A stretch of DNA of 64,000 nucleotides, from NCBI GenBank assembly GCA_018710985.1, contig DVIV01000005.1, forward strand, positions 1,210 through 65,209, written 5' to 3'. Source of the DNA: Candidatus Limiplasma pullicola. GTDB taxonomy: Bacteria > Bacillota > Clostridia > Christensenellales > Aristaeellaceae. A program made the position numbers and the translations under genes. Numbering within the stretch: position 1 is the stretch's first letter; every line of letters begins with the position of its first letter. Positions 1 to 55,176 of the stretch are shown here, one piece after another. The notes under the pieces were generated by a model. The model did no database searches. It was not told where the DNA came from and saw nothing but the letters and a program-made list of their open reading frames with translations.

Positions 1-7
1 GCGGCGT

Positions 8-3000
8 ATGCGGCTGATGGCGCTGGTGGTGGCGGCCATGATGATTTGCGGACTGGCTATTGCCGAGCCCGTGCACGAGCATCAATGGAGCGCATGGCAG
101 AAGAGCGCGGATCATCCGAATCAGGAAACCCGCACCTGCCTTACGTGCAGCGCCGTCGAAACGCGGGAACATGAGTGGGGCCCGTGGACCGACATGGGCG
201 ACGGCACGGAAAAGCATACATGCATCAACTGTCAGAAGGAAGAATTCCGCAAGATCGAGACGCCTGCGATCCAAAGCGACAGCGGAGAAGGCGCGGGAAT
301 CAGCCTGCTGAACGAAAATGATACGGGCATGACGCCGGACCCGGACCCGAACGCGAATACGCCCGCGGACCCGGACCCGAATGCGAATACGCCCGCGGAC
401 CCGGACCCGAACGCGAATACGCCCGCGGACCCGGACCCGAACGCGAACACGCCCGCGGACCCGGACCCGAACGCGAACACGCCCGCGGACCCGGACCCGA
501 ACGCGAATACGCCCACGGACCCGGATACGGGCACGGACAACCCGGACGGAGACCCCGTTGCCGGACAGGCGGAGCTGCAGATCAGCCTGACGGTGGACCG
601 CACCGAAGCGAAGGCCGGGGATGAGCTGACATATACGGTCACCGTGACCAATGCTGGCACGGCCGATGCTCAGAATGTCAAGGTGAGCTTTGCGCTGCCG
701 GCGGATCTGCAAATTGTGGAAACGTCCTACGGCGGTACCCTGGCCGAAACCACACTTTCGCCACTGAACCAGGGAGATACGACGACCGTCTCGCTCAAGG
801 CTAGGGTGCTGGAAACCGCCGCTCATGGTACAACGTTGACGGTTACGGCCTCGGCGAACAATACGGCCAGCGAACCGGCGGTGACAACGGTGCTGGAGTC
901 CCCGCAGCTGTCGCTTGCCTTAACCGCCAGCAGCGACACGGTCACGGCGGGCGAAACGCTGGCGTATACAGTTACGCTCACCAACGACGGCAGAGGACCG
1001 GCCGTCAATGCGACCGTTGCGGTCACGCTCCCGCAGGGCCTTGAAAACGTGGCGCCGGATACGCCCGACGGGACCGTCTATGCGGACGGCCTGTGGACGG
1101 TGCCCGCGCTGGCGGCGGGCGAGAGCATGGCGCTTGTCCTGCGGGCGACGGTGATGCGCGGCATGCCTGACGGTACGGACCTGACCGCGCAGGCGCAGGG
1201 AATGGGCGTTTCAGCTGACGGCAGCGCGATGCCGGCAACGTTCGCAGCGCCCATTGTGGTCAGCGCGCCGGTCACGCTGTCCGCCCCCGCGCTGACCATC
1301 ACGGTGACTGCGGATCATAAGACCGCCGCCACGGGCAGCACCGTGAACTATATTGTGACCGTGTCCAACAGCGGAAGCGCCGAGGCAACTGGGGTGGACG
1401 TAACGGTCAGCCTGCCGGCTGCCAACCTGAAACTGGGCACGGTTACGCCCAAGGAAGGCACCAGCTGGGTTGAAAAAAGCGCAACATGGACCATTCCTTC
1501 GTTGGCTATGGGCGATGAGGCCACCCTCCAGCTGATGACGTTCGTGACGGACGTGAAGCCGGGCGACACCGTCACGGGCAGCGCTTCGGTTGTGCAGGTA
1601 GACGGAACGTCCCCGGCCACGCAGATTACCGCCAGTGCGGCGTTCACCGGTGAAAACGCCGCGGTCAACCTGTCGATCACCAAGACGGCGGATCGCCTTA
1701 GCGCGCAGCCCGGCGAGGAGCTGCGCTACACGCTGGTGGTCACCAACAACGGCAAGGCCGCCATCAATAGCATCCAGGTGAGTGAAAAGCTGCCCGACAA
1801 GCTGCTCTTTGCGGAAAAGGAGCTCACCCAGGGAACGACCTATGACGAGGCTACCGGCCTGTGGACCATCCCCGTGCTGGAGCCGGGCGCGCAGGCGACG
1901 CTGGTGGTCAGGAGCGTGGTGATGGACGCCAGGGAGGGCCAAAACCTGGTCAACACCGCCGAAATCATCAGCGTGGACGGGGCAGAGCCGGCGGTCCATC
2001 CCACGGCAACCGCGTCGGTGCTCATCAACGCGATCAGCTACGGCTTCCTCACCGTCAACAAGACGGTGACGGGCAGCGGCGCCAGCCGGCACCGCGACTT
2101 CCCCTTCCAGGTGGTCTTTACCGACGCGGCCGGGGTGGCCGTGCACGGTATCGGCATCTATGTGAAGGGCACCGAAAGCCATACCTTTGATACGGCCTAT
2201 CCCCTCACCTTCGAGCTTCGCCATGACGAAACGGTATGGATCGGCGTGCCCACGGGCATGAGCTATACCGTGACGGAAACGGATATCAAGGGTTACGGCC
2301 TGACCAGCAAAAATGACAAGGGCGTGATCCAGACCGATCAGCTCATTCAGGCGACCTTTGTCAACGACCGCCAGCGCAATACCGATATTCCCAAGACCGG
2401 CTATGCCGATCAGGCTCCGGATGCAGCCGTGGAGCAGCCGGCCGTGGCCGAGGATCTTACGCAGGCCTATGCCCAGAATGACGACCTGGTAGGCTGGCTC
2501 AAGGCCGGCGATGGAATCGACCTGCCGGTGGTGCAGTCCGATAACACCTATTATCTGGACCATGGCTTCACGGGGGAAGAGAACAAGAACGGCACGCTCT
2601 TCCTCAACATGAACAACCAGCTCTTTCCCGCGGATGACGTGCTGCTCATCCATGGGCATAACATGAAGGATGGCTCCATGTTCGGCACGCTTTCCAAATT
2701 TGAGCGCTACGACTATGCCTGCGAGCATCCCATCGTAACCTTCCAGACCATCCACGATGAGGAGCCCGTCTACTACGTGCCGATATCGGTGTTCAACGCC
2801 TCCATGCTGCCGGACCATTCCAGCTATTTTGACATCACGCAGATCGTCTTTCCCGATGACGAGGAGGGCGGGGAGGAGGACTCCTCGACCTTCCGCCAGA
2901 GCACCGCGTTCAGGACCTATCTGGACGAGCTGAAGGCGGTTTCGCTGTGGGAATCGCCCGTGGACGTGAACGTGGACGACAAGCTGCTCATGCTGATCAC

Positions 3001-3100
3001 CTGCAGCTACGACCTGGAGGACGGCCGGCTGATGGTGGTCTGCCGCAGGCTCAGGGACGGGGAAACGCCCGAAGAGGTCGCCGAACTTTTTGCCAAATAA
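8..3100 (+). CDS. Secreted multidomain surface protein with C-terminal class B sortase domain (DUF11 repeats, Cna-B/SpaA-like domain, IPKTG, SrtB-like domain)
   Basis: Continuous 1030-codon ORF. Signal peptide (..MICGLAIA/EP). Two H-x-W..C-x-x-C modules. PDPNANTPAD decapeptide repeats. Four DUF11-type repeats (AGDELTYTVTVTNAG, AGETLAYTVTLTNDG, TGSTVNYIVTVSNSG, PGEELRYTLVVTNNG). A Cna-B-like domain ending FVNDRQRNTDIPKTG. Then DDLVGWL..YYLDH..LLIHGHNM..LMLITCSY..RLMVVCRR, typical of SrtB. Confidence 0.85.
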   Translation: MRLMALVVAAMMICGLAIAEPVHEHQWSAWQKSADHPNQETRTCLTCSAVETREHEWGPWTDMGDGTEKHTCINCQKEEFRKIETPAIQSDSGEGAGISLLNENDTGMTPDPDPNANTPADPDPNANTPADPDPNANTPADPDPNANTPADPDPNANTPADPDPNANTPTDPDTGTDNPDGDPVAGQAELQISLTVDRTEAKAGDELTYTVTVTNAGTADAQNVKVSFALPADLQIVETSYGGTLAETTLSPLNQGDTTTVSLKARVLETAAHGTTLTVTASANNTASEPAVTTVLESPQLSLALTASSDTVTAGETLAYTVTLTNDGRGPAVNATVAVTLPQGLENVAPDTPDGTVYADGLWTVPALAAGESMALVLRATVMRGMPDGTDLTAQAQGMGVSADGSAMPATFAAPIVVSAPVTLSAPALTITVTADHKTAATGSTVNYIVTVSNSGSAEATGVDVTVSLPAANLKLGTVTPKEGTSWVEKSATWTIPSLAMGDEATLQLMTFVTDVKPGDTVTGSASVVQVDGTSPATQITASAAFTGENAAVNLSITKTADRLSAQPGEELRYTLVVTNNGKAAINSIQVSEKLPDKLLFAEKELTQGTTYDEATGLWTIPVLEPGAQATLVVRSVVMDAREGQNLVNTAEIISVDGAEPAVHPTATASVLINAISYGFLTVNKTVTGSGASRHRDFPFQVVFTDAAGVAVHGIGIYVKGTESHTFDTAYPLTFELRHDETVWIGVPTGMSYTVTETDIKGYGLTSKNDKGVIQTDQLIQATFVNDRQRNTDIPKTGYADQAPDAAVEQPAVAEDLTQAYAQNDDLVGWLKAGDGIDLPVVQSDNTYYLDHGFTGEENKNGTLFLNMNNQLFPADDVLLIHGHNMKDGSMFGTLSKFERYDYACEHPIVTFQTIHDEEPVYYVPISVFNASMLPDHSSYFDITQIVFPDDEEGGEEDSSTFRQSTAFRTYLDELKAVSLWESPVDVNVDDKLLMLITCSYDLEDGRLMVVCRRLRDGETPEEVAELFAK
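331..526 (+). repeat. Tandem 30-bp coding repeat, about 6.5 copies (PDPNANTPAD)
   Basis: Copies in register at 331, 361, 391, 421, 451 and 481, differing only at 1-2 synonymous or near-synonymous positions. A partial seventh copy starts at 511. Confidence 0.95.
2387..2401 (+). other. IPKTG sorting-signal-like pentapeptide, internal to the ORF
   Basis: att ccc aag acc ggc, in frame with the start at 8. It is not followed by a hydrophobic helix and K/R tail but by an acidic linker and the sortase domain (from about 2480). Confidence 0.7.
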
Positions 3101-3107
3101 CGCCGAC

Positions 3108-3140
3108 GGCCCCTTCCTGCGAAGGAAGGGGCCGCCTTTT
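3108..3140 (+). terminator. Rho-independent terminator (a second hairpin lies at 3141..3167)
   Basis: GGCCCCTTCC-loop-GGAAGGGGCC followed by GCCTTTT. Immediately after it comes CAATCCCCCGGC-TAA-GCCGGGGGATTG. Confidence 0.7.
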
Positions 3141-3236
3141 CAATCCCCCGGCTAAGCCGGGGGATTGCTGTTTGCAGGAAAGGAAACGGCATTTTTTCGC
3201 TTGACTTGCCCAGTCTGTCCCGCCTGCAAGAAACCG

Positions 3237-3265: not shown

Positions 3266-3333
3266 AAAACCGCATCAGAGCCCCGTTGACAGCGGATTTG
3301 TCCATGAAAACGGAGGCAGAGAGGAGAATCGAA

Positions 3334-5013
3334 ATGCAGCGTACCAGAAAAATGGCGCTGCGGGTTGCGACGGTCGCGCTGGCGGCGACAACCGCCTGTT
3401 CCGCATCGGGCGGCGCGGGCGCGCTTTCGGAAAGCGGCGATTCACCCGCGACGGAGGCCGTCAAAAACGGGGACGGCAGCTACAACATCCTGTTTGTGAC
3501 CACCGATCAGGAGCACTACTTCGACCAGTATCCGCAGGGCACTTCCTACAAGGCCCGCGAGCTGCTGGCCGAGCTGGGCACCACCTTTGAAAAGCACTAC
3601 ACCTGCGCCAACATGTCCACCTCGGCCCGCTCGGTCATTTACACCGGCCAGCACATCCCCCAGACCAAAATGCTGGACAACATAGACGTAGCGTGGCAGT
3701 CGCCCATGAGCCCGGACCTGACCACCGTGGGGGACAGGCTGAGACAGGCCGGCTACTACACCGCCTTCAAGGGAAAGTGGCATATGGGCGGCAGCGGCAT
3801 CCTGGGCCTCCACGAGAGCAGCCTTTCCGATCTGGAGGACTATGGCTTCGCGGACTGGGGCGGTACGGACTATATAGGCACCCTCTATGAAGGGCTCAAC
3901 GCCGATCCCGTCATCTCCTCCGAGGCCGTGGAATGGCTGGAAGGGACGGGAAAGGCGCTCAACGAACAGGGACAGTCCTTTTTCCTGGCCGTCAACATGG
4001 TCAATCCCCATGACATCATGAACTATGACAACTCCGGCGCCCAGAGCAATCTGCTGGCGCTGGGCGGGAAGCCGGACGATCCGGTGTACCAGAAGACCTA
4101 TGCCGATCCCGCCCCTTCCAGCTGGGATTTCGACCTCAACGCCCCGGATGTGCCCGAAGCCCTGAGCATTTACAACAGCGAGTGGTGCAGCTATACCGGC
4201 GCGGTGACGGATGAAGCGGGCTGGAAGGATTATCAGGACTACTACTATAATTGCATTCAGGACAACGACAACCACCTCATGGAGCTGCTGGACTATGTGG
4301 TGGACAGTGGCCTGCTGAAAAACACCATCATCGTCTTTACCTCCGACCATGGGGAGATGCATGGCAGCCACGGCCTGAAGGGGAAGGGCGGATTCGTGTA
4401 TGAGAACTGCATCCACGTGCCCCTCTACATCGTCCATCCTGAATACGAGGGAGGCAGGCGGATTTCCGCGGTCACCAGCCACCTGGACCTGGCGCCCACC
4501 TTCCTGGACATGACCGGCCTGCCTGACGAGGAGAAGGAGCGGCTGTGCGAAGGGCTTCCGGGCCACAGCCTGATGGACCTGATGGACGGGTCCGCCTCGT
4601 CCGTGCGGGACGGAGCGCTGTTCTGCTATGAATCGCTGCTGATGAGCGCCGTGCAGGTGGACGTGGCCCTGGACGGGAGCATGAGCTACCAGATCGACCT
4701 GACCAACCGGGGCATGGTGCGCGGGCTGATCACGGAGGACTACAAATTCGTGCGCTACTTTGCGCCGCTGGAGTTCAACACCCCGCAGACCCTGGAGGAG
4801 CTCTACGCCATGAATGACGTTCAGCTCTTTGATCTCAGGCAGGACCCGGAGGAGTTGAACAACCTCGCGGCGGACCCGGAGGCCAACGGAGAGCTGATTC
4901 TGGAGCTGAACGCCCGGCTGAACCGGCTGATTGAAGAGGAGATCGGGCAGGATGACGGGCAGGAGATAACCGTGATCCTCCAGACGCTTCAGCAAAGCGA
5001 TCTGGGCGCATAA
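3334..5013 (+). CDS. Sulfatase (formylglycine-dependent family), predicted lipoprotein, Ser-type with an atypical core motif
   Basis: Start chosen at ATG 3334 after GGAGGCAGAGAGGAG. Signal/lipobox MQRTRKMALRVATVALAATTAC. Motifs LFVTTDQEH, STSARSVIYTG (FGly-motif position) and FTSDHGEMHGSHGLKGKG. Confidence 0.85.
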   Translation: MQRTRKMALRVATVALAATTACSASGGAGALSESGDSPATEAVKNGDGSYNILFVTTDQEHYFDQYPQGTSYKARELLAELGTTFEKHYTCANMSTSARSVIYTGQHIPQTKMLDNIDVAWQSPMSPDLTTVGDRLRQAGYYTAFKGKWHMGGSGILGLHESSLSDLEDYGFADWGGTDYIGTLYEGLNADPVISSEAVEWLEGTGKALNEQGQSFFLAVNMVNPHDIMNYDNSGAQSNLLALGGKPDDPVYQKTYADPAPSSWDFDLNAPDVPEALSIYNSEWCSYTGAVTDEAGWKDYQDYYYNCIQDNDNHLMELLDYVVDSGLLKNTIIVFTSDHGEMHGSHGLKGKGGFVYENCIHVPLYIVHPEYEGGRRISAVTSHLDLAPTFLDMTGLPDEEKERLCEGLPGHSLMDLMDGSASSVRDGALFCYESLLMSAVQVDVALDGSMSYQIDLTNRGMVRGLITEDYKFVRYFAPLEFNTPQTLEELYAMNDVQLFDLRQDPEELNNLAADPEANGELILELNARLNRLIEEEIGQDDGQEITVILQTLQQSDLGA

Positions 5014-5035: not shown

Positions 5036-6184
5036 ATGCCTGATTCCGGAAGGACCTATGCCATGATGGCGAAGCCGGTGTCCAGCGCCTGCAACCTGCG
5101 GTGCGCCTATTGCTACTATACCGGGAAGGAAGCGCTGCTCCATCAGGGGAACGGGAGAATGTCCCATGAGGTGCTGGAGGCCTTCATCAGGCAAAACCTG
5201 GCCATGCACGGCAGGGACGCGGTCGTGGAGTTTGCCTGGCACGGAGGCGAACCGACCCTGGCGGGGCTGCCGTTCTACGAAGAGGCCGTGCGCCTGGAGC
5301 AAAAGTACGGCGCGGGGCGGCGGATTGTCAACACCCTGCAGACCAACGCCACGCTGCTTACCGACGAATGGTGCCGCTTTTTCAGGCAGCATGCGTTTCA
5401 CATCGGCGTGAGCATCGACGGCCCCGAGGAGCTTCACAACGCCTACCGGAAAGGGGTGAACGGGGCGGGCGCCTTTGAGGCGACGATGAGGGGAATCCGG
5501 CTGCTTTGGCAGCACGGCGTCCCCTTTGCCACCCTCACCACGGTGAACCGGGTCAATATGGAGCATCCGCTGAAGGTCTACCGCTTCCTGCGCGGGCTTA
5601 GCGACTATCTCCAGTTCCTCCCCGTGGTAGAGGCCCTGCCCGGCGAGCTGGAGGAGGAGGAGGGACAGCATCTGGCCACTCCGCCCGGCATTCACGCTTT
5701 GGGGCTGGTCCATCCCGTCGCGCCCTTTTCTGTTACGCCCGCGGGATATGGGGACTTTCTGTGCGCCATCTGGAAAGCGTGGCTCGGACAGGATGCGGGC
5801 AGGGTCCATGTGCAGCTCTTTGACGTTGCCCTGGGGCACCTTCAGGGCCTGCCCTCCACGCTGTGCGTCCATGACCCCCTGTGCGGCCACAGCGGCTGTG
5901 TGGAGGCCAACGGGGACGTATATGCTTGCGACCGTTACGCCTTTCCCGAATACCGCCTGGGGTCCCTTCTGCGCACGCCGCTGGAGGAGCTGATGGAGAA
6001 AAACCGGAGCTTTGGCATGCACAAGACCTGTTCGCTTCCGCAGGACTGTCTGGACTGCCCCTATGTGCGGCTGTGCTTCGGCGGCTGTCCCAAGGACCGG
6101 CTCAGCCATCGGAAAAACTACCTCTGCGAAGGCTACAGGCGCTTTTTTGCACGGGTGCTGGCGGACTGGAACGAGGGCGTGTGA
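5036..6184 (+). CDS. Anaerobic sulfatase-maturating enzyme (radical SAM/SPASM)
   Basis: CNLRCAYCYY (CX3CX2C) near the N-terminus. C-terminal Cys clusters (CGHSGC..CDRY.., CxxCxxxxxCxGGC). Lies directly downstream of the sulfatase gene. Confidence 0.85.
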   Translation: MPDSGRTYAMMAKPVSSACNLRCAYCYYTGKEALLHQGNGRMSHEVLEAFIRQNLAMHGRDAVVEFAWHGGEPTLAGLPFYEEAVRLEQKYGAGRRIVNTLQTNATLLTDEWCRFFRQHAFHIGVSIDGPEELHNAYRKGVNGAGAFEATMRGIRLLWQHGVPFATLTTVNRVNMEHPLKVYRFLRGLSDYLQFLPVVEALPGELEEEEGQHLATPPGIHALGLVHPVAPFSVTPAGYGDFLCAIWKAWLGQDAGRVHVQLFDVALGHLQGLPSTLCVHDPLCGHSGCVEANGDVYACDRYAFPEYRLGSLLRTPLEELMEKNRSFGMHKTCSLPQDCLDCPYVRLCFGGCPKDRLSHRKNYLCEGYRRFFARVLADWNEGV

Positions 6185-6251: not shown

Positions 6252-8219
6252 TTACGGCTCCACGATGTTGAAATCCGGCGTAAACACCACGATGTGTTCG
6301 CAAAGGGTGTCCAGGACATCCTCGCCGCCGGTGAGCTCGGCGGCCTGCCGCACCCCGTCGGCGTTGCCCTGAAGCAGGGCGAAAAGCGCGGCCTTGGGCA
6401 TGCGCCACTCGGCGTCAGCATCGGGGTCCTGCACGCCCTCCTGATAGAGAAGCACGCCGGCGCGCAGGGTGATGACAAACTGCTCCTGGGTGTCGGTCAC
6501 CACCAGGTTGATCGTGCTGTTGAGGTCCACCACCGCATTGCTGTCCAGCCGGATGCCCAGGTATTCCAGCATCAGGTTTACGCCCATCTTCATCTGCATC
6601 TCCGCGGCGCCGCTCATGGGGTTGGACGCGGGGTCCTCGTCGCTGCGCAGCTCCTGGGCGGCGGTCAGATAGGCGTTGCGCCAGGGGCCGGACTCCGCCT
6701 GGTAGCCCAGCTGCTCCAGGGCGTCGGCGCACAGCCAGCGGGCTTCCAGATTGTCCGGGTCGGCATAGACAAGGACGTTGGTGATCTGGGCCACCCACTG
6801 ATATTCGCCCTTTTCAAAGTCCTCCCGGGCCATTTGCAGCACCTTGTCGGTGTCGCCCAGGTATTCCACCAGCTTCAGGGCATAGTCCGTGGGGGTCATC
6901 TCATCCAGATGCACCGGGTTGGCGTCATACCAGCCCATATACTTCTGGTAGACGGCCTTGACGTTGTGCTTGAGGGTGCCGTAGTACTGACGGGTATACC
7001 ACACCTGCTCCAGCTCGGCGGGCAGGCGGATCATGTCGGCAATTTCGGTTTCGGTGTAGCCCTGATTGATATAGAACAGGGTCTGGTCATGGATGAACTT
7101 GTAAACCGCCGCCGTGTTGGTCATGTACTGCTCAATCACGTCGTTGCCCCAGTGCGGCCAGTTGTGGGCCTGGAAGACCACCTCCGCCTGCTCTCCGTAC
7201 AGGGCCAGCGCCTCCATGATATAGTTGGCCCATGCGTTTCCGTCCCGCACCTGGGCGCCGCGCAGGGTGTAGAGGTTGTGCAGGGTGCCGGTGCAGTTTT
7301 CCGCCAGCCACAGCGCGTTCTTTTCCGGCAGCCAGGTGTTCATTTCCGCGGGCGCCTCGGTGCCGGGGGTCATCTGGAACTCGAAGGTAACCCCGTCGAT
7401 GACGCGGGTCTCGCCGGTCGTGGTGATGATATCGTTGGGGGAAATGTAGGACAGGGTGCCCTTGGACTGGTTCATGCCGATGCCTACGCTCATGGCGCCC
7501 TGCGCATCCTTGTCCAGCAGGGTCCCGTACTGATAGGCGGCGCGGCGTCCCATGGCGGTGCCGGCATAGACGTTCTCGCTGATGGCGTACTCCTCAAAGC
7601 CCTCCGGGGCGATGATGGGGATGTTCCGCTCCTCGACCTCTTCCTCGGACACAATGCCCTTGATGCCGCCGAAGTGATCCACATGGGAATGGCTGATGAT
7701 GACGCCCATGATGGGGTACTCGCCCAGCTGCTCGTCCACCAGCTCCTTGGCAGCCCGTGCACACTCCACCGAGATCAGGGGATCAAAGACGATCCAGCCG
7801 GTCTCGCCCTTGACAAAGGTGATGTTGGAGATGTCATAGCCGCGCACCTGATAGATGCCGTCGGTCACCTCAAACAGGCCGTAGATGTGGTTGAGCTGGG
7901 TGTCGCGCCACAGGCTGGGGTTGACGGTGTCGGGAGCGTCCGCATCCTCCAGGAAGGCGTAGGCGTCCTGGCTCCAGATCAGCTTGCCGTCCTCGCTCCT
8001 CAGCTCCAGGGACTCCGGCGCGCAAATCAGGCCCTTCTGGGCGAATTCCAGCTCCTGCTGATCGTCAAAGTCCAGCTGCTCATAGACGCTCTGGTTTATC
8101 TGGGCGGTGATCTCCGTGGCGCCCTTCTGCTCCGCGTTCAGCTCCGCCGTTTCCGCATGCGCCGGGAAGAGGGCAAACACCATGCCCAGCAGGCAGAGAA
8201 TAGCTGTCCATCGTTTCAT
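6252..8219 (-). CDS. Alkyl/aryl-sulfatase of the metallo-beta-lactamase fold (SdsA1/BDS1-type), secreted
   Basis: Signal peptide MKRWTAILCLLGMVFALFPAHA. MBL motif ISHSHVDHFGG. Length and C-terminal region typical of type III alkylsulfatases. AGGAGG RBS. Confidence 0.8.
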   Translation of the reverse strand: MKRWTAILCLLGMVFALFPAHAETAELNAEQKGATEITAQINQSVYEQLDFDDQQELEFAQKGLICAPESLELRSEDGKLIWSQDAYAFLEDADAPDTVNPSLWRDTQLNHIYGLFEVTDGIYQVRGYDISNITFVKGETGWIVFDPLISVECARAAKELVDEQLGEYPIMGVIISHSHVDHFGGIKGIVSEEEVEERNIPIIAPEGFEEYAISENVYAGTAMGRRAAYQYGTLLDKDAQGAMSVGIGMNQSKGTLSYISPNDIITTTGETRVIDGVTFEFQMTPGTEAPAEMNTWLPEKNALWLAENCTGTLHNLYTLRGAQVRDGNAWANYIMEALALYGEQAEVVFQAHNWPHWGNDVIEQYMTNTAAVYKFIHDQTLFYINQGYTETEIADMIRLPAELEQVWYTRQYYGTLKHNVKAVYQKYMGWYDANPVHLDEMTPTDYALKLVEYLGDTDKVLQMAREDFEKGEYQWVAQITNVLVYADPDNLEARWLCADALEQLGYQAESGPWRNAYLTAAQELRSDEDPASNPMSGAAEMQMKMGVNLMLEYLGIRLDSNAVVDLNSTINLVVTDTQEQFVITLRAGVLLYQEGVQDPDADAEWRMPKAALFALLQGNADGVRQAAELTGGEDVLDTLCEHIVVFTPDFNIVEP

Positions 8220-20318: not shown

Positions 20319-22412
20319 ATGAGGCTTTCTCTGCGCAAAAAAGTGATGGTGGCCGTGCTGCTGATGGCCCTGATTGTGGCCGGGGCCACCGCGCTTGTGA
20401 GCTATAACATGTACGCCCGCTCCATGGAGGAGCACTATGAGCGGCTGACCATGAACACCGCCAGGTCCGCGGCCTCCATGGTGGATGTCCAGGCGGTGGC
20501 GGAACTGAAGGACCGCACGCTGGAGATTTACCGCGGCTTCTGCCCGGACGAGAACACGCCCCCGGACTTTGAAGCCTTTGATGAGGCGGACTGGGACGCC
20601 TACTATGCCGCCTACGACGAAATCCTCCAAAGCGACGCCTACCGGAAAACCTTCGCCACCCTGAACGCCCTCAAGGAGGACAACGGCGTACTCTGGCTGT
20701 ATGTGGCCTACATGGATGAGCAGACCGGTCAGGGCATTTACATCGTGGATGCGGATTCCACGCAAGACGCCTGCCTGCCGGGCACCTGCGGGGATATCGA
20801 GCCGGAAAATCTGGTGCTGATGGAGCAGGGCGTGTACGACTTCCCGCCCTACATCACCAATTACGAGGAATTCGGCTGGCTGTCCTCCGCGGCCGCGGCC
20901 ATTACCGCCCCGGACGGAACGGTGGTGGCCAACGCGTTTGTGGACTTTTCCATGAACCAGGTGATGGCCGACCGTCAGGCCTTTCTGCTGCGGCTGGCGG
21001 CTGTGCTGGCCGCGGTGACGCTGGTGCTGATTGTGACGCTGGCCTACGGGTTCGGCCGGGCGGTGGTGCGCCCCATCAACCAGCTGGCGAAGGCCACCGG
21101 CTCCTTCGTTTCCGACAAGGAGCGCAATCAGAGCAGCTCCGCCATCTCCCTGCTGGAGATACGGACGGGGGACGAGATTGAAAACCTGTCCTGCTCGATC
21201 CGGCAGATGGAGCAGGAGATCAACACCTATATCGCCAACCTGACCCAGGTCACGGCGGAGCGGGAGCGCATCGGCGCCGAGCTGGACGTGGCCCGAAACA
21301 TCCAGGCTTCCATGCTGCCCTGCATCTTCCCGCCCTTTCCGCAGCGCGAGGAGTTCAGCATCTTTGCCTCCATGGACCCGGCCAAGGAGGTCGGCGGCGA
21401 TTTTTATGACTTTTTCCTGGTGGACGACGACCACCTGGCCCTGGTGATGGCCGATGTGTCGGGCAAAGGGGTTCCGGCGGCCATGTTCATGGTCATTGCC
21501 AAGACCCTGCTGAAAAACGCCGCCCAGACTGGCGCTTCCCCCAGGGCCGTGCTGGAGAAGGTCAACGACCAGCTGTGCGAAAACAACGATGCCGAAATGT
21601 TCGTTACCGTGTGGCTGGGAATTCTGGAGATTTCCACCGGAAAGCTGGTATGCGCCAACGCCGGCCACGAGTTTCCGGCCATCCGCCGCGCGGGCGGAGA
21701 ATTCGAGCTTTTCCGCGACAAGCACGGCTTTGTGCTGGCGGGCATGGAGCATGCCCGTTACCGGGAGTACGAGCTGACCCTCTGCGGAGGAGATACCCTT
21801 TTCGTCTACACCGACGGCGTTCCCGAAGCTACGGACAGCCAGAACCGGCTCTACGGTACCGACCGGATGCTTGCCGCGCTGAACCGGCAGAAGGAGGCAG
21901 GCTGCCAGGAGCTCATCCGGGGGCTGCGGGCGGACATTGACGGCTTTGTGGGCGACAACCCGCAGTTTGACGACATCACCATGCTGGCGCTGGAGTTCAA
22001 AAACCTGGGCGAGACGCGCATGCGCAAAATGGGGCTGCGGCCCGATCTGGCCCAGCTGGAGCAGGCCACGGCCTTCTTTGAGAACATTCTCGCAGAGCAC
22101 AACGCCCCCAGGCGGGTGGTGGAGCAGATGAAGGTTGTGACGGACGAGATTTTTTCCAACATCGTCTTTTACAGCGGGGCCACGGCGGTCACCCTGGGGT
22201 GCGAGGCGGGAGAGGGATATGCCCGGCTGCGCTTCTCCGACAACGGCCGGCCCTATGACCCCACGCAAAAGCCGGACCCGGATGTCACGCTTCCTCCGGA
22301 GGAGCGGGAAGCCGGGGGCATGGGCATCTATATCGTCCGAAAGCTGACGGACGGACTGTCCTATTACTACGCCGACGGCCTGAATGTGCTAACCTTGGAA
22401 AAGCGATGGTGA
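20319..22412 (+). CDS. Membrane sensor phosphatase: TM, Cache-like ectodomain, TM, HAMP, PP2C (SpoIIE/RsbU), C-terminal RsbW-type GHKL
   Basis: GGDFYDFFLVDDDHLALVMADVSGKGVPAAMFM, VYTDGVPEA (PP2C). C-terminal 127 aa (from 22029) carry DEIFSNI, SDNGRPYDP and GGMGIYIV. Confidence 0.8.
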   Translation: MRLSLRKKVMVAVLLMALIVAGATALVSYNMYARSMEEHYERLTMNTARSAASMVDVQAVAELKDRTLEIYRGFCPDENTPPDFEAFDEADWDAYYAAYDEILQSDAYRKTFATLNALKEDNGVLWLYVAYMDEQTGQGIYIVDADSTQDACLPGTCGDIEPENLVLMEQGVYDFPPYITNYEEFGWLSSAAAAITAPDGTVVANAFVDFSMNQVMADRQAFLLRLAAVLAAVTLVLIVTLAYGFGRAVVRPINQLAKATGSFVSDKERNQSSSAISLLEIRTGDEIENLSCSIRQMEQEINTYIANLTQVTAERERIGAELDVARNIQASMLPCIFPPFPQREEFSIFASMDPAKEVGGDFYDFFLVDDDHLALVMADVSGKGVPAAMFMVIAKTLLKNAAQTGASPRAVLEKVNDQLCENNDAEMFVTVWLGILEISTGKLVCANAGHEFPAIRRAGGEFELFRDKHGFVLAGMEHARYREYELTLCGGDTLFVYTDGVPEATDSQNRLYGTDRMLAALNRQKEAGCQELIRGLRADIDGFVGDNPQFDDITMLALEFKNLGETRMRKMGLRPDLAQLEQATAFFENILAEHNAPRRVVEQMKVVTDEIFSNIVFYSGATAVTLGCEAGEGYARLRFSDNGRPYDPTQKPDPDVTLPPEEREAGGMGIYIVRKLTDGLSYYYADGLNVLTLEKRW

Positions 22413-22450
22413 CAGCCTGCGGGCCTTCACCGCAAGGAGGTTCTTTCCAA

Positions 22451-24193
22451 ATGAACGGTTTATTCATCATGATCATTGCCATTGTGGTACTGCTGGCGGC
22501 CTATCTCATCTACGGCCGCTATCTGGCCAGAACCTGGGGGATTGACCCCAAGGCCAAAACCCCCGCCTATGAGCTGGAAGACGGCGTGGACTATGTGCCT
22601 GCCGATACCAATGTGGTCTTCGGCCATCAGTTTGCCTCCATCGCCGGGGCGGCCGCCATCAACGGCCCCATTCAGGCGTCGGTATTCGGCTGGATTCCGG
22701 TGCTGCTGTGGATTCTGCTGGGCGGCGTGTTCTTCGGCGCCGTGCAGGACTTTGCGGCCATGTACGCTTCGGTCAAAAACAAGGGGCGCACCATCGGCTA
22801 CATCATCGAGTCCTACATCGGCAAAACGGGCAAAAAGCTCTTCCTTCTGTTCTGCTGGCTCTTTTCCATTCTGGTGGTAGCCGCCTTTGTGGATATCGTG
22901 GCCGGCACCTTCAATGGCTTTCAGGCGGGCTCCGACGGGGTCATCACGCCCATTCGGGCCAACGGTTCGGTGGCCACCACATCCATGATCTTCATCGTGG
23001 AGGCCGTGGCGCTGGGCTTTCTGCTGCGGTATGGGAAGCTCCATAAATGGGGCAACACCGCCGTTGCCATCGTCATGCTGGTGGCGGCCGTCATCCTGGG
23101 GCTGCGCCTGCCCCTGTATATCAGCCTGAACAACTGGCATCTTCTGGTCTTTGTCTACGTGCTCATCGCGTCGGTGGCGCCTATCTGGGCCCTGCTCCAG
23201 CCCCGCGACTACCTTAACAGCTACCTGCTGATCGCCATGATCGTGGCGGCCGTGATCGGCGTGTTCGCCGCGCGGCCGGAGGTGAACCTTCCCGCGTTCT
23301 CCGGCTTCACCGTCAACGGCCAGACGCTCTTCCCCTTCCTCTTCGTCACCATCGCCTGCGGCGCCGTGTCCGGCTTCCACTCGCTGGTGTCCTCCGGCAC
23401 TGCCTCCAAGCAGATCAAAAATGAGAAAAGCATGCTCCCCGTCTCCTTCGGCGCCATGCTGATGGAGTCCATGCTGGCGGTGATCGCCCTGATCGCCGTG
23501 GCCTCCTTCTCCTCTTCGGCGGAGACCGCCGCGCTGGGCTACACCACCCCCTCCCAGATCTTCGCCGGCGGGGTCTCAAATTTCCTGGCGGTCATGAACC
23601 TGCCTCAGGACGTGGTGTATACCCTCATCAACCTGGCGGTGTCCGCCTTCGCCCTCACCTCCCTGGATTCGGTGGCCCGCGTGGGGCGGCTTTCCTTCCA
23701 GGAGCTGTTCCAGGATGAGTCCGTCAGGCCCGAGGAGATGAGCCTTGTGCGCCGGGTGCTGACGAACAAGTATTTTGCCACCATCCTCACGCTGGTGCTG
23801 GCCTTCTTCCTCACGCAGGTGGGATACGATTCCATCTGGCCGCTGTTCGGCGCCTCCAACCAGCTGCTCTCCGCCCTGGCCTTCCTGGCCTGCGCGGTAT
23901 TCCTCAAGCACACCAAGCGCAAAAGTTTCATGCTCTGGATTCCCATGTTTACGATGATCGCGGTGACCTTCTCCGCCCTGGCCCTGACCATCTGGAATCT
24001 GGGCAGCGGCATCGTGGGAGGGAGCTACCAGTGGATCGCGGGGATGACGGTCACGGTGAACGGCGCCAGCGTGCTGACCGCGTGGGGAGCCGGCATCCAG
24101 CTGCTGTTTGCAGTGCTGATTCTGGCCCTGGGCGTCGTCGTTGTGATACAGGGAATCCGCAAGCTGCTGGCGAAACCCGCCGCCGCGATGTAA
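22451..24193 (+). CDS. cstA: Carbon starvation protein A (peptide/pyruvate transporter family)
   Basis: MNGLFIMIIAIVVLLAAYLIYGRYLARTWGIDP.., FGHQFASIAGAAAINGPI. ATG 22451 behind AAGGAGG. Confidence 0.85.
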   Translation: MNGLFIMIIAIVVLLAAYLIYGRYLARTWGIDPKAKTPAYELEDGVDYVPADTNVVFGHQFASIAGAAAINGPIQASVFGWIPVLLWILLGGVFFGAVQDFAAMYASVKNKGRTIGYIIESYIGKTGKKLFLLFCWLFSILVVAAFVDIVAGTFNGFQAGSDGVITPIRANGSVATTSMIFIVEAVALGFLLRYGKLHKWGNTAVAIVMLVAAVILGLRLPLYISLNNWHLLVFVYVLIASVAPIWALLQPRDYLNSYLLIAMIVAAVIGVFAARPEVNLPAFSGFTVNGQTLFPFLFVTIACGAVSGFHSLVSSGTASKQIKNEKSMLPVSFGAMLMESMLAVIALIAVASFSSSAETAALGYTTPSQIFAGGVSNFLAVMNLPQDVVYTLINLAVSAFALTSLDSVARVGRLSFQELFQDESVRPEEMSLVRRVLTNKYFATILTLVLAFFLTQVGYDSIWPLFGASNQLLSALAFLACAVFLKHTKRKSFMLWIPMFTMIAVTFSALALTIWNLGSGIVGGSYQWIAGMTVTVNGASVLTAWGAGIQLLFAVLILALGVVVVIQGIRKLLAKPAAAM

Positions 24194-53722: not shown

Positions 53723-53799
53723 GTAAAACTGAAAAGGAGATTGCTGGTAACACAGACGGCGGCTCGCTTCCCAAAATAATTTGAAAAAGGGGATTGCAA

Positions 53800-55176
53800 A
53801 TGAAAAACAGAATCTGGATACTGCTGGCGCTGATCATGACCCTGGCGTTTGTGCCGCTTCTGGCCGGAGAAGCGGAGGGAAAACCCGACGATGATTCTTT
53901 CGGCTTAAATACGGTGTACTACAACGGGAAGTATTATCCGACCCTGAAGGAAGCACTCACGGCCGTGTACATGAGCAAGCCGGCAGGCGTGGCGGAGCTG
54001 TATTGCAAAACCGGCGCCGACGTGGGTCCCCTCACGCATGGGCATGTGGCGGATGATATCATTATCTACGGAAACGGAGCCAGGGTGTCCGGCGGCGAGT
54101 ACGATATGGAAATCGATACTTACATGTTTGACCGCAACACAGGCAATCAAAGCGAGACCGGTTCCTTTCTGGATAAGGACATCACCGTCAAGGTATACGA
54201 CCTCAACGGCATCGCGGCCTGGGGCCAGCGGAATACGAACCATACGATCAACCTGTATTTTGAAAACTGCAAGAACATGAACCGCATCTACTTCACCAAC
54301 ACGGCCAATGACAAAGGCCGCATCAACGTCACCCTCAGCGGCTGTTCCTTTGACGCCAATCAGGGGAGTAATGCCAATACGTCTGTTTACAGCAACGCCC
54401 CCGGAGACATTCTCATCAGCGATACCACGTTTACGGATATTGCCGTGGGACTGAACATCAACCACAAATCGGCGGGCGTTCAGAATATTACGCTGGAAAA
54501 CTGCACCTTTACCGATTGCGCGCTGAGCGCGAGCACCAAAACCTATGGTGCGCCCGTTCGCATCGTGGCACGGCTCGGCGCGACGACCAATCTGACCGTC
54601 GAAGGCGCGAAGTTCCATTACAGCGCGGGCAATCAGAACGTCGGAAACGGCGATGTCCTCATCGGGGACGGCCGCTACGACGCGCCCGAAAAGCAGGGCA
54701 CCGTGACCCTGCAGATGACGGACACCGAGGCGGACGTGGTGGTGCAAAAGGCAATGTATTATGATGAGGCGGGCAACGTGACCGATCCGCAGAAGGCCCA
54801 GACGACGGTCGTTTCCCGAAGTGATATGCTGATAGCGGATACCGATAACCACTTCATATTGGACTGCCACGATCAGATCAGCCTTGTTGGCGAAAAGCAG
54901 GCAACCTGTATCGCAGAAGGCTATACAGGTGACAGGGTTTGCAGCGTGTGCGGCATGGTGGTGGAGAAAGGGAAGAGCATCCCCAAAACGGAGCACAATT
55001 TCCAGAATGGCGTATGCACCATGTGCGGCATGGCGCAGCCCAGCGAACCTGCCGCCGTGCCGCCCCGGACGGGCGAGGGCAACCAGCGGACCCTTTGGCT
55101 GGCTCTGCTGCTGGTATCCGGCGCGTGCCTTGCGGCAGCGGTGCTTGCCAGAAGAAAAGGCAGGCATCAGGCATGA
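53800..55176 (+). CDS. Cell-wall-sorted surface protein with a right-handed beta-helix-like region, Cys modules and a PPRTG sorting signal
   Basis: Signal peptide. Repetitive N..T/..G..N-rich segments (beta-helix-like). CIAEGYTGDRVCSVCG and HNFQNGVCTMCG. Then PPRTG (55060..55074), a hydrophobic helix and RRKGRHQA. Confidence 0.75.
   Translation: MKNRIWILLALIMTLAFVPLLAGEAEGKPDDDSFGLNTVYYNGKYYPTLKEALTAVYMSKPAGVAELYCKTGADVGPLTHGHVADDIIIYGNGARVSGGEYDMEIDTYMFDRNTGNQSETGSFLDKDITVKVYDLNGIAAWGQRNTNHTINLYFENCKNMNRIYFTNTANDKGRINVTLSGCSFDANQGSNANTSVYSNAPGDILISDTTFTDIAVGLNINHKSAGVQNITLENCTFTDCALSASTKTYGAPVRIVARLGATTNLTVEGAKFHYSAGNQNVGNGDVLIGDGRYDAPEKQGTVTLQMTDTEADVVVQKAMYYDEAGNVTDPQKAQTTVVSRSDMLIADTDNHFILDCHDQISLVGEKQATCIAEGYTGDRVCSVCGMVVEKGKSIPKTEHNFQNGVCTMCGMAQPSEPAAVPPRTGEGNQRTLWLALLLVSGACLAAAVLARRKGRHQA

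Follow-up and report, generated by a model that had tools for sequence, protein, structure and literature searches.

An adhesin and a class B sortase in one reading frame

The window analyzed here, a 64,000-nucleotide stretch of the Candidatus Limiplasma pullicola contig DVIV01000005.1 (assembly GCA_018710985.1, positions 1,210 to 65,209 of the forward strand), begins with a single open reading frame (ORF) that joins a surface adhesin, a sorting motif and a class B-type sortase domain. The gene is homologous to and syntenic with pairs of separate substrate and sortase genes in related bacteria, and the fused architecture is conserved, is under purifying selection and has recurred. The first-pass annotation had proposed that the motif and an SrtB-like domain share one secreted chain, and every string it quoted is present where it had placed it. 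The features of the locus are as follows.

8..3100 (stop codon 3098-3100), + strand: fused adhesin-sortase ORF, 1030 amino acids as read
8..64, + strand: signal peptide MRLMALVVAAMMICGLAIA, followed by EP; read from the sequence, with a putative cleavage site of the A-x-A signal-peptidase type (A-I-A before E)
71..241, + strand: two copies of a small H-x-W...C-x-x-C module (residues 22-78), common to the N-terminus of the split ortholog L002
336..525, + strand: 30-nt tandem repeat (6.3 copies, 96% identity) encoding a DPDPNANTPA low-complexity spacer
569..2017, + strand: four CLIPPER (DUF11) isopeptide-type stalk domains, residues ~188-670 (Pfam PF01345, E 5e-66, 4 stretches; TIGR01451, E 2e-34)
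2048..2371, + strand: DUF7601 (CnaB-like), residues 681-788, the final domain ahead of the sorting motif (PF24547, E 1.4e-20)
2387..2401, + strand: sorting motif IPKTG, residues 794-798, predicted scissile bond between T797 and G798; invariant in fused orthologs, and followed by a transmembrane (TM) helix and a lysine/arginine (K/R) tail in split substrates
2402..2434, + strand: flexible acidic spacer, residues 799-809, with a predicted local distance difference test (pLDDT) score of 31-56 in two AlphaFold runs and no hydrophobic segment
2435..3097, + strand: class B sortase catalytic domain, residues 810-1030 (TIGR03064, AlphaFold2, Foldseek, phmmer)
2657..2659, + strand: catalytic His884 in LLIHGHNM, an invariant column of family alignment A1
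3002..3004, + strand: catalytic Cys999 in LMLITCSY, aligned with the Cys of the TCTY motif of Clostridioides difficile SrtB and at least 90% conserved
3026..3028, + strand: catalytic Arg1007 in EDGRLMVV, an invariant column aligned with the Arg of DARMVI in C. difficile SrtB
3107..3143, + strand: intrinsic-terminator-like hairpin (12 bp, 9 GC) and T-run, 7 nt 3' of the stop codon

The protein had been described as a surface protein of 1030 residues, which is its length as read, but the ATG at nucleotide 8 is probably internal, because the orthologs L008 and P0122 start MKKR[RH]MRL and window bases 2-7 encode RR; the true start would lie ~15 nt (~5 codons) 5' of the window. The fused protein appears to have the N-terminal Sec signal peptide of a sortase substrate, and its full-length orthologs start MKKRRMRL. 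This signal peptide is the sole strongly hydrophobic segment of the chain, with a Kyte-Doolittle mean of 2.26 over 19 residues. The small module that follows at residues 22-78 had no match in a Pfam search of the fused protein. In place of the low-complexity repeat (window 336-525), orthologs have other low-complexity repeats at that position, multiple copies of TDPNAG in L008 and GTEPEGGNQEPDG in L009. DUF11 is now named CLIPPER and is an isopeptide-bond stalk domain (PMC12617251). The profile searches that the first-pass annotation had called for recovered four DUF11 stretches, DUF7601 and Sortase in Pfam.

The Pfam Sortase match covers residues 837-1014 at 26.9 bits, against a cut-off of 26.6, and the NCBIfam class B sortase model TIGR03064 matches with E 2.4e-34 and 118.7 bits, which is below its equivalog cut-off of 153.75. 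Only profile positions 46-235 of 235 align, so the N-terminal anchor region of the model is unmatched. Free-standing relatives of the domain likewise score under this cut-off (112-135 vs 153.75 bits), and by these scores the fused domain reads as a homolog of the class B profile and not as an "equivalog". The whole sortase subfamily, fused and free-standing, also scores under the cut-off of NF040525, and it has no dedicated curated model.

The structural evidence for class B is based on AlphaFold2 runs of residues 680-1030 and residues 790-1030, both of which gave pLDDT >93 across residues 810-1030. The predicted fold is a sortase beta-barrel with the class B-specific helices. In a Foldseek search of the PDB, the best 19 matches were all class B sortases (E 2e-17 to 5e-12, TM-score on target 0.67-0.86), including 5b23, 2oqw, 1ng5, 4ux7, 5jcv, 3psq and 4y4q, from Clostridium perfringens, Bacillus anthracis, Staphylococcus aureus, C. 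difficile and Listeria monocytogenes, together with the pilus-type SrtB of Streptococcus pyogenes and Streptococcus pneumoniae; class A and C sortases matched only at E ~1e-6. A phmmer search of the PDB placed C. difficile SrtB at 6e-23. The His-Cys-Arg triad is present, as judged from the 38 sequences of alignment A1, and all three residues are kept in the fused orthologs; the RLMVVCRR string spans residues 1007-1014. The N-terminal signal-anchor TM helix that belongs to class B enzymes is absent from the fused protein, and the family carries an acidic insert at residues ~949-968 of the fused protein. By sequence and predicted structure, the catalytic domain is a genuine class B-type sortase that is apparently catalytically competent.

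IPKTG begins 5 residues past DUF7601, and the protein thus has a sorting pentapeptide after its last folded domain, as a sortase substrate does, with a sequence that matches the cognate sortase. The hydrophobic helix and positive tail of such a substrate are missing, and the motif runs instead into an acidic spacer (5 D/E, 0 K/R) and then into the sortase domain. Residues 799-824 (nt 2402-2479), YADQAPDAAVEQPAVAEDLTQAYAQN, had been called a 26-residue acidic linker. The sequence and its acidity (5 acidic and 0 basic residues) hold, but AlphaFold2 predicts disorder for only ~12 residues (798-809), and the remainder of the stretch is modeled as the N-terminal helix of the sortase fold. The lack of a membrane anchor in the sortase part, also part of the first-pass annotation, agrees with the unmatched anchor region of TIGR03064 and with a 19-residue Kyte-Doolittle scan of residues 40-1030, which found no TM-like segment; the maximum mean was 1.64, vs ~2.5 in real anchors of relatives (2.55 in P0018). 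Neither the adhesin part nor the sortase part is predicted to have a membrane anchor.

Split and fused relatives

Free-standing homologs of the sortase are 50-62% identical to it and ~280-380 residues long; their N-terminus is rich in K/R, and a membrane helix and a long linker, acidic or proline-rich, precede the catalytic domain. In every locus with sufficient upstream DNA, the gene directly 5' of the free-standing sortase encodes a surface protein with the same terminal motif. The upstream proteins end as follows.

L002/L012 (Eubacteriales metagenome-assembled genome, MAG): 1373 aa with the same N-terminal Cys module, CLIPPER repeats and DUF7601, ending RNTDIPKTGYGEGSW-TM-RKPKRAKQ; 21 nt to the sortase gene
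L004/L005: FctA/SpaA/DUF7601-type surface protein ending DIPKTGYGED-TM-KKRSR
L010: C-terminal signal EIPKTGD
L013 (Ca. Limiplasma sp. chromosome): C-terminal signal NIPKTGD
L014: C-terminal signal VIPKTGYG
L016: C-terminal signal GIPKTGYG
L017: C-terminal signal EVPKTGYG
5/7 loci of the distant clade L019-L025, three of them Pullichristensenella MAGs: C-terminal signal MP[EK]TGV

Since the free-standing relatives each adjoin an upstream gene that ends in the same motif with a TM helix and a K/R tail, IPKTG in the fused protein is taken to be a genuine sorting motif, and the cognate motif of the sortase family reads as [DE]-[IV]-P-K-T-G-[YD]. A chance match can be set aside: the motif occupies the homologous place in the split ortholog, which has the same 10-mer RNTDIPKTGY. 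Across 251 residues, the two domains before the motif align collinearly with those of the L002 substrate at 34% identity, up to an identical NTDIPKTG. Compared with the L002 pair, the fused gene is missing the substrate's hydrophobic helix together with its charged tail, the stop codon, the spacer between the genes, the N-terminal anchor of the sortase and most of the sortase linker. The spacer at residues 799-809 takes the place of two membrane elements, the helix plus K/R tail at the end of the substrate and the TM anchor at the start of the sortase. The split pairs in relatives therefore indicate that the window gene is a substrate-sortase pair fused in frame with the loss of both membrane segments.

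Several free-standing members of the family have traits of their own. Two sortases are preceded by small FctA-type proteins that end soon after the motif, with neither a hydrophobic helix nor a K/R tail. One of these proteins (L003 7437-7940, the same as L015 6984-7517) ends in TDIPKTGYDGHCGD and the other (L011 2-451) in TDIPKTGYDNDAQDYVDNAFAWLKDLL, each directly followed by the stop codon. From their sequences, these proteins look like natural anchor-less substrates, reminiscent of AbpA. In the free-standing homologs P0005-P0036, a conserved element lies ~40 residues past the TM helix and consists of LY-x-G, a short hydrophobic stretch and A-x-A-E (LLSSASAEG, FPIAYAESE, ITSASAEQ). It resembles a signal-peptidase I site, and if it is cleaved, even the free-standing enzymes of the family would leave the membrane; the element is missing from the Limiplasma-type fusion. 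P0138 (551 aa) continues for ~250 residues past the sortase domain with no domain assigned, and P0061 and P0063 end in a PG_binding_1 domain, which gives these sortases a peptidoglycan-binding module of their own.

The fusion is not confined to the window. Four GTDB species representatives share its in-frame junction.

L006: Ca. Limiplasma pullistercoris, fused junction
L007: Ca. L. merdipullorum, fused junction
L008: complete 1052-aa fused gene with a Shine-Dalgarno sequence
L009: species representative with the fused junction

It is also found in the long-read contig L001, in P0001-P0004, in the 28-member cluster of P0003, which includes the full-length 1107-aa P0122, and in P0137, a 50%-identity cluster representative; ~30 metagenome proteins have it. 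Exact matches to the window protein and to the L008 ortholog were absent from the protein and contig collections. The first-pass annotation had asked whether related genomes hold the same architecture or split genes, and they hold both. Members of 321 aa in the P0003 cluster were considered as free-standing sortases and rejected, since they begin at an internal Met in DUF7601 and retain the junction; they are read as partial gene calls. L001, considered as a natural split into a 444-aa CLIPPER protein and a 218-aa sortase, was rejected as well, as three-frame translation shows two single-base indels with the window's sequence between them.

Across 5 aligned fused orthologs, RQRNT[DE]IPKTGYADQAPDA is invariant while the stalk diverges. 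Pairwise Nei-Gojobori ratios of nonsynonymous to synonymous substitution rates (dN/dS), taken at dS 0.2-1.6, differ by region.

Sortase domain: dN/dS 0.07-0.13
Motif plus linker: dN/dS 0.03-0.35
DUF7601: dN/dS 0.10-0.27
CLIPPER repeats: dN/dS 0.20-0.53

By this ranking, the enzyme half is the most constrained part of the protein. The fusion is under purifying selection and has been kept in at least 5 lineages. The first-pass annotation had also considered a decay product of a substrate-sortase pair joined by deletion. A joined pair it is, with split pairs in relatives, but decay is refuted by the dN/dS of 0.07-0.13 in the sortase part, the intact triad and the retention in those lineages. When L001 8570-12160 was compared with window 1-3142, the housekeeping flank was ~95% identical and the sortase half nearly identical at the protein level; the CLIPPER repeats were ~40-60% identical, with no blastn match over window nt 266-1642. 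In this comparison, a stalk that is hypervariable or recombining sits on a C-terminal module that is conserved.

Among 1.84 billion cluster representatives, searched exhaustively and profile-free, 185 proteins matched at E <= 1e-30, and besides the Limiplasma-type cluster these include two more fusions. P0158 (773 aa) has a signal peptide, four CLIPPER stretches, GGAVPKTGLPDTIFPAAWW and the sortase; P0177 (662 aa) has CLIPPER repeats, EDAVPKTGYGEEIIPAAWQ and the sortase. Their sorting motif is AVPKTG, neither has a membrane helix, and both are complete genes within short-read contigs. The two junctions are alike and unlike the Limiplasma junction. In a neighbor-joining (NJ) tree of the catalytic domains, the Limiplasma-type clade is nested among free-standing enzymes and P0158/P0177 lie near the family base, with many free-standing sortases between the two and with monophyly of all fused proteins in 0/100 bootstraps. 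The tree is simple (197 columns) and its deep branches are poorly resolved; with its weak deep nodes, it is read as pointing to at least two independent fusion events. Seven other proteins were rejected as substrate fusions (P0266, P0237, P0242, P0206, P0209, P0272 and P0180), as each has long N-terminal cytoplasmic or low-complexity regions and a TM helix.

The rest of the window

The fused gene stands isolated, with its own terminator and no pilus genes nearby. The other genes of interest in the window are as follows.

3286-5013: sulfatase
5036-6184: radical-SAM anSME-like gene
6252-8219, - strand: alkyl sulfatase
20319-22412: SpoIIE/HATPase gene
22406-24193: CstA
53794..55176, + strand: second sortase substrate, a 460-aa secreted protein ending PPRTG-TM-RRKGRHQA

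The first five lie within a block of ~21.3 kb (window 3143-24426) that is missing in L001 and L007, where the radical-SAM/rimP-nusA-infB block (window 24427 onward) directly follows the fused gene. L006 has a different insert of ~6.7 kb at the same place, and the region looks like a variable insertion hotspot.

The 460-aa protein had no Pfam or NCBIfam match, and a tblastn search of the window found no further sortase gene, hence none there to serve it. The first-pass annotation had cited this protein in support of its motif class. It does show, by its ending, that sortase substrates exist in the organism, but nothing ties it to the fused enzyme, because the cognate motif of that family is [DE]-[IV]-P-K-T-G-[YD] and not PPxTG.

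A C-x-x-C...H-x-F variant of the small Cys module lies just ahead of the PPRTG signal. The H-x-W-x(1-3)-W...C-x-x-C form recurs in family substrates, at the N-terminus of the fused protein and in L002 (3859-4100), and its CxxC part (ERTC-x-x-CG) is also found just ahead of the MPETG signals of substrates in the distant clade L019-L025. The module may be a zinc-ribbon-like or disulfide mini-domain.

Fate of the motif and place among sortase systems

An obvious question is what the fused enzyme does with the motif on its own chain. Most likely, the protein is a natural substrate-sortase fusion, a "self-sorting" fibrillar adhesin whose own sortase would cleave IPKTG between Thr and Gly and pass the stalk to a cell-wall amine. 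To the claim that the fused sortase domain processes its own motif we assign a probability of about 0.6. The ancestor would have been a cassette of two genes, the first for a surface protein with [DE]IPKTGY, membrane helix and K/R tail at its C-terminus and the second for a dedicated class B-type sortase with an N-terminal anchor. In this reading, an in-frame deletion took out both membrane segments and the intergenic spacer and left the motif tethered by ~12 flexible residues to the catalytic domain that recognizes it. After Sec export and removal of the signal peptide, Cys999 would attack IPKTG between T797 and G798, in the same chain or in a neighboring molecule, and a thioester would form between the CLIPPER/DUF7601 stalk and the enzyme. 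An amine would then resolve the thioester, most plausibly that of a peptidoglycan stem peptide or cross-bridge, which would leave the stalk covalently on the wall and set free a soluble sortase of ~26 kDa starting GYADQ. The covalent tether would thus stand in for membrane co-localization of enzyme and substrate. We infer the cleavage, its course in cis or in trans and the acceptor alike.

Several points weigh against self-processing. The domain scores under the TIGR03064 equivalog cut-off, so its specificity and chemistry may differ from those of characterized SrtB. The distance from the motif to VGWL is 55-61 residues in P0158/P0177 vs 28-30 in the Limiplasma type, and with spacers of such different length in the two lineages, there is no evident conservation of one particular geometry for action in cis. 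A structure prediction had been suggested as a check on whether the motif can reach the active site; AlphaFold2 leaves residues 790-809 disordered and IPKTG undocked, also in the run of residues 790-1030. At pLDDT 31-56, the predicted disorder of motif and spacer neither supports nor refutes cleavage in cis. Moreover, for a protein with no membrane tether, an encounter of the acyl-enzyme with lipid II is hard to explain, which would leave room for hydrolysis (simple release) or for an uncleaved motif.

Precedents for a departure from the classical scheme exist among class B enzymes. In S. aureus, SrtB is believed to attach IsdC to peptidoglycan that is already assembled, not to lipid II. AbpA, which has no sorting signal of the classical type, is nevertheless anchored and laddered by an SrtB dedicated to it (PMC4974636). 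With these two cases and the helix-less substrates of L003/L015 and L011, such a departure becomes less implausible for class B enzymes.

An alternative is autoproteolytic release, in which the sortase would cleave its own chain and water would hydrolyze the thioester, so that the CLIPPER stalk is shed as a free extracellular protein. Sortases hydrolyze the acyl-enzyme slowly in the absence of a nucleophile, and lipid II may be out of reach when neither half has a membrane tether. Engineered SrtA-LPXTG fusions do self-cleave (PMC2901362). We consider release unlikely, however: the classical retention signals of the split orthologs imply that their products are anchored to the wall, stalks of CLIPPER and DUF7601 domains are typical for fibrillar adhesins attached to the surface, and plain secretion needs neither motif nor enzyme, yet both are strongly constrained.

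It is also conceivable, though on a low probability, that the protein is a membrane-independent, single-turnover or "spring-loaded" adhesin. The enzyme would form the thioester with its own stalk, and the acyl-enzyme would leave the membrane and discharge onto amines of mature peptidoglycan or of foreign surfaces such as host mucus or other microbes. If this is true, it would be a covalent adhesin with an outcome analogous to that of thioester-domain adhesins, and sortase-mediated attachment would need no membrane anchoring of either partner.

A further alternative is that a sortase carried on a stalk acts in trans. IPKTG would then stay uncleaved or serve as an autoinhibitory pseudo-substrate like the class C lid, and the enzyme would work on different substrates, such as the PPRTG protein at 53794..55176. 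In favor of this, no part of the protein is more conserved than the sortase, the motif is not docked by AlphaFold, and a second sortase substrate is present in the window. Still, in the loci with sufficient upstream DNA, the free-standing relatives pair with [IVM]P[KE]TG substrates, not PPxTG, and cleavage is the simplest explanation for an invariant DIPKTGY at the place homologous to the cleavage site. Given a cleavable signal peptide, the stalk would also have no attachment to the cell. Such a role is quite improbable.

Head-to-tail polymerization would join Thr797 to a lysine of the next monomer and build a pilus-like fiber with no separate pilin sortase. Class B sortases polymerize streptococcal pilins, and 3psq and 4y4q are among the fold matches; AbpA is laddered by SrtB, and some relatives lie in FctA-pilin loci (L003). 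A sortase-assembled pilin has a pilin motif and a pilus operon, and here neither was found: a search of the fused protein for [YFW]PK, PK[NDG] or a YPKN-type motif was negative, which disfavors polymerization, and the gene is isolated, outside any pilus operon. The closest split ortholog, L002, is a single large adhesin and sortase pair. Polymerization is very unlikely.

A non-functional fusion, whether a pseudogene-like deletion remnant or an assembly or sequencing artifact, is effectively refuted. Such fusions do arise by deletions that join neighboring genes, and two single-base indels break the gene in L001. Those breaks, however, are single-base differences from the window in a long-read contig that splits other genes as well (HisG is called twice), and between them the frame matches the window exactly. 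The junction in many independent short-read assemblies and four species representatives excludes the assembly or sequencing error that the first-pass annotation had raised. In addition, dN/dS is ~0.1 at dS up to ~1, the catalytic residues are invariant, and the architecture has a second origin.

Taken singly, the parts of the protein are unremarkable. One is a class B-type sortase, the other a fibrillar adhesin of the CLIPPER/CnaB kind with its sorting pentapeptide, and in split form they make up the familiar arrangement of a dedicated sortase beside its substrate. The fused protein is no plain member of either family, because it lacks the signal-anchor of a sortase and the hydrophobic and charged tail of a substrate. 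Dedicated class B sortase/substrate pairs (IsdC and SrtB of S. aureus; AbpA and SrtB of oral streptococci, NF040525; C. difficile SrtB with (S/P)PxTG) have the same fold and His-Cys-Arg triad, and their enzyme gene lies beside a single cognate substrate with a non-LPXTG motif, which is exactly how the split relatives are organized. AbpA is alike in one more respect, as it also has no classical hydrophobic and charged tail. Unlike these pairs, the window protein combines substrate and enzyme in one polypeptide with no membrane segment and with the motif [DE][IV]PKTG[YD], and its family falls under the TIGR03064 and NF040525 cut-offs and carries the acidic insert at ~949-968.

Other systems share single features. 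Sortase-anchored CLIPPER/CnaB fibrillar adhesins have, like the window protein, tandem isopeptide-type domains behind a signal peptide and a low-complexity spacer, with a pentapeptide right after the last Ig-like domain, but in the window fusion a catalytic domain stands in for the defining helix and positive tail. Class C sortases whose active site is occupied by an N-terminal "lid" likewise have a segment ahead of the catalytic domain, which in the fusion could fill the substrate groove; the fold of the window enzyme matches them at E ~1e-6 vs 1e-17 for class B, and its segment is a bona fide substrate motif and not a DPW-type lid, and is predicted to be disordered. Engineered self-cleaving SrtA-LPXTG-target tags (BISOP, PMC2901362) also have enzyme and motif on one chain, with intramolecular or proximity-driven cleavage. 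They differ in being artificial, in using a class A sortase and in carrying the motif on the C-terminal side of the enzyme, an order that releases the target, whereas the window fusion is natural and conserved; its motif precedes the enzyme, and the cargo would accordingly end up as the acyl donor on the catalytic Cys. Literature searches for a natural single-chain substrate-sortase and for IPKTG found only engineered fusions and pilin motifs of group B Streptococcus (GBS), an absence that is no proof.

In the textbook sortase pathway, the hydrophobic tail of the substrate and the N-terminal anchor of the enzyme bring the partners together by lipid II. Here both tethers have been deleted and a peptide bond stands instead, an arrangement that is unexpected for the standard sortase model and that strong purifying selection has maintained in several species of gut Clostridia. 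With an active domain, the fusion would be a natural experiment showing that proximity alone can replace membrane retention and that a class B sortase can work off the membrane. The family would then represent a previously uncurated sortase subfamily with the extended motif [DE][IV]PKTG[YD], and the fusion would provide protein engineers with a ligation module that is compact, genetically encoded and self-contained. The annotation of gut Firmicutes, where such proteins are now labeled just "class B sortase" or "DUF11 protein", would have a new kind of surface attachment to consider.

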